Assembly (NCBI GenBank): GCA_900542425.1
Contig: UQNQ01000002.1
Location: 44,843-108,842 of the forward strand
Direction of reading: 5' to 3'
DNA: 64,000 nt
Origin: an uncultured Eubacteriales bacterium
Lineage (GTDB): Bacteria; Bacillota; Clostridia; Oscillospirales; CAG-272
Below are positions 44,862-46,505 of the stretch, one piece after another (within the stretch, counting starts at the first letter, position 1; each line of letters starts with the position of its first letter). The notes under the pieces are model-generated. The model saw nothing but the letters and a program-made list of their open reading frames with translations, was not told the DNA's origin and made no database searches. The translations under genes were made by a program, and so were the position numbers.

Positions 44862-46505
44862 TTATGCAGTCCTGCGCAATTTTAATATCGTTAGGTTAAT
44901 TTCACCGTCACGCGCATCGGCTGAACCGTTATAAGCCAAATAAAATTCAGTTGGAGAAGGTGCATCCAAAATAATAAAAGCCGATCCGCATGCGCTGGAG
45001 CCATTGGCGCTGGTAGCAAAATATATTCCTGTTTCTAAATGAGCAGTTCCATTATAAAAGGGCGTTACTTGCATATAATTCGGAGTTTGAAAAATGGCAG
45101 ATACTTTGTAAGAAATCAAATAATAGCCGGCGGTAAGCGAGATATGCTCCGTGTCGGTTGCTACAATATTTCCGGTTGGATCCGTAACAGCCGGAAATAA
45201 CGTAATCAAGCTTCCACTTACAAGAAGATATTGTGTATTGATAAAGGATGCAAAGATATCATCAGGAATATCTCCTTCCGGACCGGTTGCTCCCGTAGGT
45301 CCTGTAGCGCCGGTAGAGCCAGTCGCTCCTGTCGGACCGGTATCTCCACGTGGAATGACAAAATTAAACGTAGCATTTTCGGCTGTTCCGGAATTGGTCA
45401 CCTGCGCGTCTGTTCCCGGGTTTCCGGTTGAAACGGTCCCGATCGTTATGGTTGCCGCGGTTCCGGCCGGTCCCGTAGGTCCAGTTGCGCCGGTAGGACC
45501 GGTTGCGCCAGTAGGACCGGTATCTCCACGCGGAATCGTAAAATCGAGTATGGCGTTCTCTGCCGTCCCGGAATTGGTCACCTGCGCATCTGTTCCCGGA
45601 TCGCCGGTTGAAACGGTACCCACCGTTATGGTTGCAGGACCGGTTGGACCGGTCGCTCCCGTTGGGCCAGTTGGACCAGTCGGACCGGTCGGACCGGTCG
45701 GGCCGGTCGGACCAGTTGCTCCTATAGAGCCTGTAGCTCCTGTTGGACCGGTTGGACCTTCCAAACCAACGAAACCGGCAGGACCCGTTGGGCCGGTTGG
45801 ACCGGTCGCTCCCGTAGGTCCGGTATCTCCGCGCGGAATCGTAAAATCGAGTATGGCGTTTTCTGCCGTCCCGGAATTGGTCACCTGTGCGTCCGTTCCC
45901 GGATTTCCGGTTGAAACGGTACCCACTGTTATGGTTGCCGCGGTTCCGGCAGGACCCGTAGGTCCGGTAGACCCTGTCGCTCCCGTTGCTCCCATCGGAC
46001 CGATAGAACCAGTTGCTCCCGTAGGTCCTGTAGCGCCGGTTTGACCGGTCGCTCCTGTCGGTCCGGTATCTCCGCGCGGAATGGTAAAATCGAGTATGGC
46101 ATTTTCTGCCGTCCCGGAATTGATTACCTGCGCGTCCGTGCCCGGACTTCCGGTTGAAACGGTACCGATCGTTATGGTTGCTGCGGTTCCGGTAGAGCCC
46201 GTAGGTCCAGTTGAGCCTGTTGCTCCTGTCGGACCAATAGAACCAGTCAAACCGGTTGCTCCCGTAGGACCTACCGGTCCAGTAGACCCTGTCGCTCCCG
46301 TTGCTCCCGTGGGTCCGATTAATCCCATGGGTCCCATTGGCCCCATCGGTCCAATAGGGCCTGCCGGACCGGTAGGTCCCGTCGCTCCTGTGGGTCCCGT
46401 CACAGGGGCAGGGCAAGTGCAACAACTACATGAGTAACGATAAGGACAAAAATTGCAGCATCCATGGCAGTAATTATTATTTTGATGATTATTGTTTTGA
46501 GACAA
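44862..46505 (-). CDS. collagen-like (GXT triplet) surface protein with Cys-rich N-terminus and BclA-like C-terminal globular domain
   Basis: 547 aa. Residues 12-31 contain 9 Cys. Residues 36-411 are GPT/GAT collagen triplets interrupted by four 38-40-aa modules. Residues 412-547 form a beta-rich globular domain. It apparently starts at a TTG. Confidence 0.88.
45273..46400 (-). repeat. collagen triplet-repeat DNA containing four near-identical ~115-bp modules
   Basis: Modules lie at 46068..46187, 45825..45944, 45522..45635 and 45342..45461, each encoding (TA)[38 protein letters not shown]. Confidence 0.9.

Follow-up and report, generated by a model that had tools for sequence, protein, structure and literature searches.

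A 64,000-nucleotide stretch of an uncultured Eubacteriales genome (contig UQNQ01000002.1, positions 44,843 to 108,842; here called the window, in whose numbering all positions are given) carries a gene for a 547-residue collagen-like protein (44862–46505, minus strand, taken from the open reading frame (ORF) list and its translation; TTG start, stop codon 44862–44864). In our view the product is probably a trimeric, collagen-like spore-surface filament whose function would correspond to that of BclA and of the L-BclA and F-BclA fibrillae of Bacillus. The protein consists of a Cys-rich N-terminus, a collagen stalk interrupted by four 38-residue modules and a beta-rich C-terminal head, a three-part layout that is not a chance pattern, and its gene travels on a small mobile element that splits a LysM-GH18 gene of the SleL/YaaH type.

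A C1q/TNF-like head on an interrupted collagen stalk

The C-terminal 136 residues (aa 412–547; 44865–45272, minus strand) form a non-repetitive, all-beta domain, modelled by AlphaFold2 from an alignment of homologs as a ten-stranded jelly roll of the kind that characterises the C1q/TNF superfamily (predicted local distance difference test score, pLDDT, 92.7; predicted template modelling score, pTM, 0.85). The top Foldseek matches of this model in the Protein Data Bank (PDB), all with a probability of 1.00 and template modelling scores (TM) of 0.6–0.74, were BxpB of B. anthracis (8d02; E 1.9e-7, TM 0.72), F-BclA (9h38), BclA and C1q. The BclA structures 1wck, 3twi and 2r6q were matched at E ~1e-6 to 3e-7 and TM 0.64–0.70, alongside C1q (1pk6), C1QL3 (5ybz; TM 0.74), 4-1BBL, EDA and CD40L. 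An initial annotation of this DNA had proposed a BclA-like TNF/C1q trimerisation-type head and had named jelly-roll modelling of aa 412–547 as the test of it; as regards the fold, that test was passed, with BclA, BxpB and F-BclA among the matches.

Towards the N-terminus of the head lies the stalk, which the same annotation had described as about 375 residues of collagen triplets with four insertions. The four insertions are there, but only 234 residues (78 triplets) of aa 37–413 are true G-X-Y, arranged in five uninterrupted runs on the minus strand: 24 triplets at aa 37–108 (46182–46397), 15 at aa 145–189 (45939–46073), 22 at aa 226–291 (45633–45830), eight at aa 327–350 (45456–45527) and nine at aa 387–413 (45267–45347). 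Thr occupies the Y position in 56 of the 78 triplets, with GPT (26) and GAT (19) contributing most of these, giving the protein the GXT-rich, GPT-containing collagen region that is typical of the BclA family. A Pfam scan of the whole 547-residue protein returned Collagen as its sole family (E 3.4e-28).

Upstream of the stalk, a hydrophilic, Asn/His-rich leader is followed by a Cys-rich segment (aa 13–31; 46413–46469, minus strand) with eight Cys, one fewer than the nine in 20 residues first reported; the ninth Cys of the protein, C506, is located in the head. Direct reading of the 547-residue sequence revealed no signal peptide, LPXTG motif, cell-wall-binding domain or membrane anchor. The TTG start is supported by the lack of an in-frame ATG before residue 54, together with homologs whose N-termini begin at the same place and share a GAAAGnGGG leader. 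The putative ribosome-binding site GCAGGG (46513–46518, minus strand) lies 7 nt 5' of the TTG, inside the GAAAGCAGGG leader common to homologs, and the words GAAAGC, GCAGGG and AAGCGG are enriched upstream of genes of the family described below. We observed TTG or GTG as the apparent start in many of these genes, 6–7 nt past a conserved GAAAGnGGGG leader (L036, L042, L044, L049, L064, L070 and the window). The TTG of the window gene is overlapped by a mini-ORF of 7 codons, opened by an out-of-frame ATG 8 nt farther upstream. No paralog, other collagen gene or Cys-rich partner ORF was detected in the window, the Cys-rich ORFs present being out-of-frame shadows.

A family of Cys-rich collagen proteins in gut Clostridia

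The head domain has 266 relatives at 60–80% identity in the protein collection, and 240 stretches of species-representative genomes match it, almost all of them from gut Clostridia, including C. leptum DSM 753, Flavonifractor, Anaerotignum, Guopingia and Merdimmobilis. Full-length members, usually 220–560 residues long, nearly always have a short leader and then 3–9 Cys directly before the collagen, the N-termini nearest to that of the window protein being CCHGCCNCCPYC (L036) and CSGCCDCCPYC (L042). In the four neighbourhoods annotated with Pfam, the family genes stand alone amid housekeeping genes with no phage genes nearby, and some relatives are associated with glycosyltransferases. Inserted modules are rare: two were found in L041, P0241 and P0263 and one in P0252, making the four of the window protein the maximum seen. 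We found no description of this group in the literature searched, and we propose that it is a distinct family that would work like a spore fibre of the BclA/L-BclA type. With its Cys-rich N-terminus, collagen stalk and divergent C1q-like head, it would constitute a candidate spore-surface family of about 240 species.

A promoter-like motif shared by the family

Upstream of the collagen gene we identified a promoter-like motif, AC-N17-AATATAATG (46540–46567, minus strand), that ends 34 nt before the start codon. Alignment of upstream regions across the family showed a −35-like G(A/C)AC(C/A), a spacer of 16–17 nt and a −10-like GCATAnnnT(A/G) or GAATATAnTG, with GAATAT, AATATA and GAAAGC as over-represented words. 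A strict promoter pattern found few sites, and a positional test was used instead: AC-N15-18-[C/A]ATAnnnT[A/G], ending 24–45 nt before the start codon, is present in 37 of 68 family genes, compared to an expectation of 0.46 in shuffled sequences and to 3 of 411 other genes of the same loci. Fifteen of these are canonical C-forms (CATAnnnT) and 22 are A-forms. Patterns for sigma-E, sigma-F/G and strict sigma-A showed no enrichment upstream of family genes. In a scan of about 1,700 genes, the motif occurred at only 12 non-collagen genes, among them the split GH18 gene of the window, a TPR-glycosyltransferase gene and a small ORF preceding a recombinase gene. The GH18 copy reads AC-N-TCATACAATG (42739–42766), and AC-N17-CATATAATG (48115–48142) lies upstream of the window recombinase, 83 nt from the ATG at 48226.

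The sigma-K consensus of B. subtilis is AC-N17-CATAnnnTA. The resemblance of the family motif to this consensus is suggestive of expression of the family in the mother cell. The host itself, as read from its genes, truly forms spores and has mother-cell −10 elements of canonical type, since a dpaA-dpaB (dipicolinate synthase) operon (28454–29913, minus strand) is preceded by GCATACAATA upstream of dpaA.

The gene is carried by an element within a SleL-type gene

Junction analysis delimited a gene-intervening element of 6.14 kb (43652–49793, one direct-repeat copy counted), bounded by two 12-bp direct repeats of sequence CCTATGAATGGG (43640–43651 and 49782–49793, plus strand). The collagen gene falls entirely within this element, which separates the 5' part of a LysM-LysM-GH18 gene of the SleL/YaaH type (42802–43651, plus strand, assigned with Pfam) from its 3' part (49794–50230, plus strand, assigned from the junction and comparison with homologs). 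Joining of the repeats yields a 429-residue protein (…MTYEW/GYTYGPPMAV… across the joint) that is 81–85% identical to the intact genes in L029 and L030, and the attB joint of the restored gene reads …ATGACCTATGAATGGGGATATACATAC…. In six related genomes (L029–L034) the GH18 gene is intact and the site is empty. A terminal large serine recombinase, direct repeats, precise gene restoration and empty sites, the features by which skin-like elements are recognised, are all present, and the claim of the initial annotation that the collagen gene rides on an element sitting within a spore gene was confirmed by the repeats, the restored frame and the empty sites in relatives. A LysM-GH18 gene of this type was not found reported as the target of an intervening element in the literature searched.

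The same GH18 codon is occupied in two relatives. In L005/L028 (contig CAKSDZ010000002.1, a related metagenome-assembled genome (MAG)), the insertion is about 43 kb long, includes phage-like genes and has genes for SSB, a RecT-like protein and a helix-turn-helix (HTH) protein, and in L027 (4586–5234) it has a left end related to that of the window element. These comparisons indicate that the integration module is conserved and the cargo varies at the GH18 site.

The stalk modules are shared with phage tail fibres

Each of the four stalk modules follows the pattern ATIT...IPRGD, with the G and D of the RGD opening the next collagen triplet (GDT). They occupy, on the minus strand, aa 109–146 (46068–46181; identified with PHROG, tblastn and AlphaFold2), aa 190–227 (45825–45938; repeat comparison and AlphaFold2), aa 291–328 (45522–45635; repeat comparison) and aa 351–388 (45342–45455; repeat comparison), the last being the most diverged copy. 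Module 1 was modelled as a three-stranded beta meander with a pLDDT of 94.3. The module matched PHROG families of minor tail proteins and tail fibres, including PHROGs 4120 and 6614 (minor tail), at E 3e-9 to 1e-4, and tblastn found it in 80 phage records, among them Microbacterium phages (67% identity), crAss001, Synechococcus phages and many actinophage minor tail proteins. Nine copies occur in a tail fibre of an Eggerthella phage and five in one of a Stenotrophomonas phage. The window protein carries repeat modules common to annotated tail fibres, a comparison that the initial annotation had suggested. No Pfam family covers the module, and no PDB relative was found with the single sequence (noise), a profile or the fold (best E 0.77). 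We conclude that this beta mini-domain is widespread among the tail fibres and minor tail proteins of phages.

T12, F34, P37, G39 and G42 are invariant in all 21 copies compared, which come from nine proteins. The RGD ending that had been singled out at first is present at each window copy but is not conserved in the wider module family, occurring in only 2 of 17 copies outside the window, and it is probably an incidental by-product of the junction between module and collagen. Its reading as an integrin motif was judged unlikely, as the RGD spans that junction and is unconserved in the module family.

The four copies share 84–97% protein identity and 81–93% DNA identity, and synonymous differences exceed non-synonymous ones in six of six module pairs, which indicates, at the level of codon comparison, that the duplications are old and under selection. 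Tandem Repeats Finder and a repeat search detected periodicities of 180 and 243 nt in the gene, whose longest exact repeat is 29 nt. With copies so diverged and exact repeats so short, the expectation of a hypervariable gene length was not upheld. The exact protein had no match on record, a metagenome scan returned no relative above 78% identity, and the collections held no allele above 80% identity for a comparison of lengths. Slippage does not account for the difference seen in the closest relative, L142 (87% nucleotide identity), which has lost its 5' part to an insertion.

A probable spore-surface filament and its alternatives

According to our model, the mother cell would produce the filament at a late stage of sporulation. 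The C1q/TNF-like head would trimerise, nucleate folding of the triple helix and form a distal, probably adhesive knob, borne on a stalk of five G-X-Thr-rich triple-helical segments with a predicted total length of roughly 65–70 nm, between which the four beta modules may act as trimeric nodes or hinges. The Asn/His leader and the eight-Cys cluster would form disulfides that anchor the fibre to a Cys-rich outer layer or appendage of the spore, tie its three chains to one another, or both, a proposal based on the conservation of Cys throughout the family and on the CC motif of L-BclA. Having neither a signal peptide nor a wall anchor, the protein would be as expected for one laid onto the forespore from the mother-cell cytoplasm. 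Excision of the element, presumably in the same compartment and stage, would restore the SleL-type cortex-hydrolase gene and leave the fibre gene intact on a circle. Both the promoter motif, common to more than half of the family genes, and attachment by disulfides through the N-terminal Cys cluster are testable. Spores are the transmission route between hosts for most gut Clostridia, yet beyond Bacillus, C. difficile and C. sporogenes the outer surface of commensal spores has hardly been characterised.

Several results weigh against a spore-surface filament. The N-terminus has no exosporium-leader motif (LIGPTLPPIPP-like), and the element contains no adjacent ena, exsF or glycosyltransferase gene. 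The comparison of the head with BclA_C by hidden Markov model, which the initial annotation had put forward as a check, fell short of the Pfam gathering score (PF18573; 13.1 bits at E 0.087, with 38 required), and this family was likewise unmatched when the whole protein was scanned. A profile of the head, built from an alignment trimmed of collagen columns, gave only a non-significant best match in the PDB (Cbln4, E 1.4), and single-sequence searches there returned noise. In favour of the filament, however, two proteins with a Cys N-terminus, collagen and modules, P0128 and P0155, score 29 and 21 bits on BclA_C and, by this measure, bridge the window group towards BclA. Collagen proteins of phages and giant viruses end in this head fold just as often (E 1e-9 to 1e-8), so that the fold by itself cannot tell a spore fibre from a phage fibre; the stalk modules are a phage-fibre feature, and a prophage-sized relative of about 43 kb occupies the same site as the mobile DNA holding the collagen gene. 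Finally, the window motif is an A-form (GAATATAATG) that reads equally well as a sigma-A promoter, and the CATAnnnT core embeds the TAnnnT core of sigma-A.

The points that concern modules, head and insertion site would also fit a gene for a phage tail fibre, or one left over from a prophage that has decayed, in which case the 6.1-kb element would be a prophage remnant and the protein would have served host recognition by a virion. The PHROG matches to minor tail and tail-fibre families, the 80 phage records and the nine copies in the Eggerthella phage fibre argue in this direction, as do the head fold on phage collagen proteins, the ~43-kb element with SSB and RecT-like genes at the same attB in a related MAG, and two proteins, P0176 and P0311, in which the same modules are combined with phage-type N-termini and with Peptidase_S74 or a distant C-terminal domain. 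However, the element contains no other virion gene, the N-terminus has the Cys-rich character found in the cellular family and is not a virion-attachment domain, and the gene is not placed amid tail or baseplate genes. Moreover, the head alone has no PHROG match, its family resides in ordinary chromosomal contexts, and the promoter motif is common to the cellular family and the SleL-type gene. We therefore hold a phage-fibre gene to be unlikely. An adhesin or matrix fibre of the vegetative cell surface, similar to Scl1/Scl2 or Lcl, with a sigma-A promoter and no connection to sporulation, appears to us quite improbable. The window upstream region can indeed be read as TGAACA-N18-TATAAT (46570–46541), which matches sigma-A at 10 of 12 positions in a sigma-70 scan, and four RGD motifs could suggest host binding. 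At E<=1, NCBIfam returned collagen-adhesin models only, with no exosporium-leader model among them; these were SclB, Lcl and SclA, all far below their cutoffs (120 against 325, 97 against 500 and 95 against 400 bits) and matched through the G-X-Y repeats alone. Against an adhesin there also stand the lack of the signal peptide and anchor by which Scl1/Scl2-type (LPXTG) or Lcl proteins are recognised, and of any cell-wall-binding domain, as well as the 15 canonical CATAnnnT forms at the same position in the family, a motif that is rare before other genes. Because the window A-form matches sigma-A so well and CATAnnnT embeds TAnnnT, the sigma assignment is not decisive, and the mother-cell expression that the initial annotation considered possible gains indirect support: the motif is present at family genes, the split GH18 gene and the recombinase gene, but the form at the window collagen gene is also sigma-A-like.

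A non-functional mosaic of recombined collagen-repeat DNA, carried by the element as passive cargo, would agree with the lack of an identical or near-identical copy on record and with the 5' truncation of the closest relative, L142, by another element. It is nevertheless very hard to reconcile with an intact frame of 547 codons preceded by a conserved leader, ribosome-binding site and promoter, with module copies that differ mostly at synonymous sites, and with domains that all model with high confidence, and we give it hardly any weight.

Relation to known systems

Judged by analogy of layout, the closest functional analogues of the window protein are BclA and, more exactly, the L-BclA/F-BclA tip fibrillae. 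BclA of the exosporium nap of the Bacillus cereus group (1WCK, PF18573) likewise combines an N-terminal targeting segment, a GPT-rich stalk and a C1q/TNF head without a signal peptide. The window protein differs from it in having no exosporium leader, an eight-Cys cluster, four beta modules in the stalk, a head below the Pfam BclA_C threshold, a gut Clostridium as host and a gene located on a mobile element. In the tip fibrillae of Bacillus endospore appendages (ENA), as in the window protein, an N-terminal connector that contains Cys but no exosporium leader is combined with a collagen stalk and a C1q head. The N-terminus of L-BclA carries a CC motif and likewise no exosporium leader, its collagen stalk bears a BclA-C head, and its expression is confined to sporulation (10.1101/2023.10.23.563578); a protein with a Cys-rich N-terminus, collagen and C1q has also been noted in B. 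thuringiensis (PMC12357932). The Cys cluster of the window protein is much richer than that of L-BclA/F-BclA, which lack modules. Whereas their genes adjoin ena3A and f-ena, there is no such partner in the window or the element, nor does the element contain a DUF3992 or DUF4183 appendage subunit gene. Spore-surface collagen-like proteins of clostridia, namely BclA1-3 of C. difficile and BclA of C. sporogenes, also have a C1q/BclA-like domain and an association with glycosyltransferases, but show no detectable sequence relationship to the window protein beyond the collagen repeats, and their terminal domains and domain order differ.

Collagen alternating with short non-collagen trimer modules is also seen in fibres of phages and prophages (an E. 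coli O157 prophage, PMC3368898; Eggerthella phage LE2-3; actinophages), to whose modules the 38-residue module is homologous and among which C1q-like heads occur too. These fibres have virion-attachment N-termini and are encoded among tail genes, whereas the window protein has a Cys N-terminus and promoter motif of the cellular family and no tail-gene neighbours. Together these likenesses point to exchange with phages: a beta module without relatives in Pfam or the PDB is common to phage fibres and candidate spore fibres.

The carrier element resembles skin (sigK), SPbeta (spsM), vfbin (spoVFB), gin (gerE) and yin (yabG) in its terminal large serine recombinase, short direct repeats and restoration of the frame. 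The hosts of these known elements, which range from small non-phage to prophage size, are mother-cell-expressed sporulation genes, and the mother cell is where gene-intervening elements undergo excision (PMC5595907, PMC4191935, PMC5025042). The window element differs in its LysM-GH18 target and in its cargo, which includes a MutY-like gene and the gene of a candidate spore-surface fibre.

A second recombinase element splits collagen genes

A second element, comprising a ~90-residue ORF and a large serine recombinase of about 550 residues, came to light in L142, L084, L090, L093, L097 and L110. In about 50 species of gut Clostridia it interrupts Cys-rich collagen-like genes within their GSTG/GATG-coding repeats (located in L090 at 4083–9284, in L142 at 1–2459, and in L084, L093, L097, L110 and L150–L224), and its ends are imperfect inverted repeats, CCGTTnATATATGCACAACAA ... 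TTGTTGTGCATAAATAAAyGG. Joining of its junctions restores G-A-T-G-P-T-G in frame. The right end was found in 75 species-representative stretches, 49 of which continue in frame for at least four triplets, and the recombinase, at 71–100% identity, in 24 of the 30 loci with enough upstream sequence; it is 90–94% identical across distant genera. A member of the window family is cargo of this element in four loci and its split target in L173, L176, L186 and L142, where the collagen gene is 5'-truncated by it. The inverted repeat does not occur in the window.

Fibre genes thus both ride on and are split by serine-recombinase elements. We tentatively raise the possibility, which we regard as rather doubtful at present, that gut Clostridia use site-specific recombination, through both arrangements, to diversify the collagen fibres on their spore surface or to switch between them. 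In the window, the excised circle would supply an extra BclA-like fibre with acquired phage-fibre modules while the SleL-type gene is restored. In the roughly 50 other species, a horizontally spreading second element, sometimes with an alternative family member, would exchange the spore-displayed head by its presence or excision. If excision is developmental, this would be a new way of varying the spore surface.

Other genes of the element

Besides the collagen gene with its own promoter, the window element encodes an HTH regulator, a 68-residue ORF, a MutY-like protein and the recombinase. The large serine recombinase (48181–49755, plus strand; Pfam Resolvase, Recombinase and Zn_ribbon_recom) is 77% identical to that of L005. 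Its true start is probably the ATG at 48226 and not 48181, as AAAGGAG-N6-ATG there leads into MAAIYLVYLRK, like the L005 homolog. The XRE-type HTH regulator (43705–43998, minus strand; Pfam HTH_31 and HTH_3) is located at the left end. The 68-residue ORF (44243–44449, minus strand; …RPILTEEE…) lies directly downstream of the collagen gene and is also linked to the collagen gene in L142 (2295–2459), with 98% amino-acid identity; it is 42% identical to a small ORF of the L005 element (2097–2492). It matched no family and may be a maintenance or directionality factor of the element.

Between the collagen and recombinase genes, a full-length MutY-type adenine glycosylase (46786–47859, minus strand) with HhH-GPD and NUDIX_4 domains represents unusual element cargo; in relatives with an intact GH18 gene, no copy of it was found nearby. 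Outside the element, the gene directly upstream of the split GH18 gene (42052–42732, plus strand) codes for a BspA-type leucine-rich-repeat protein of 226 residues.

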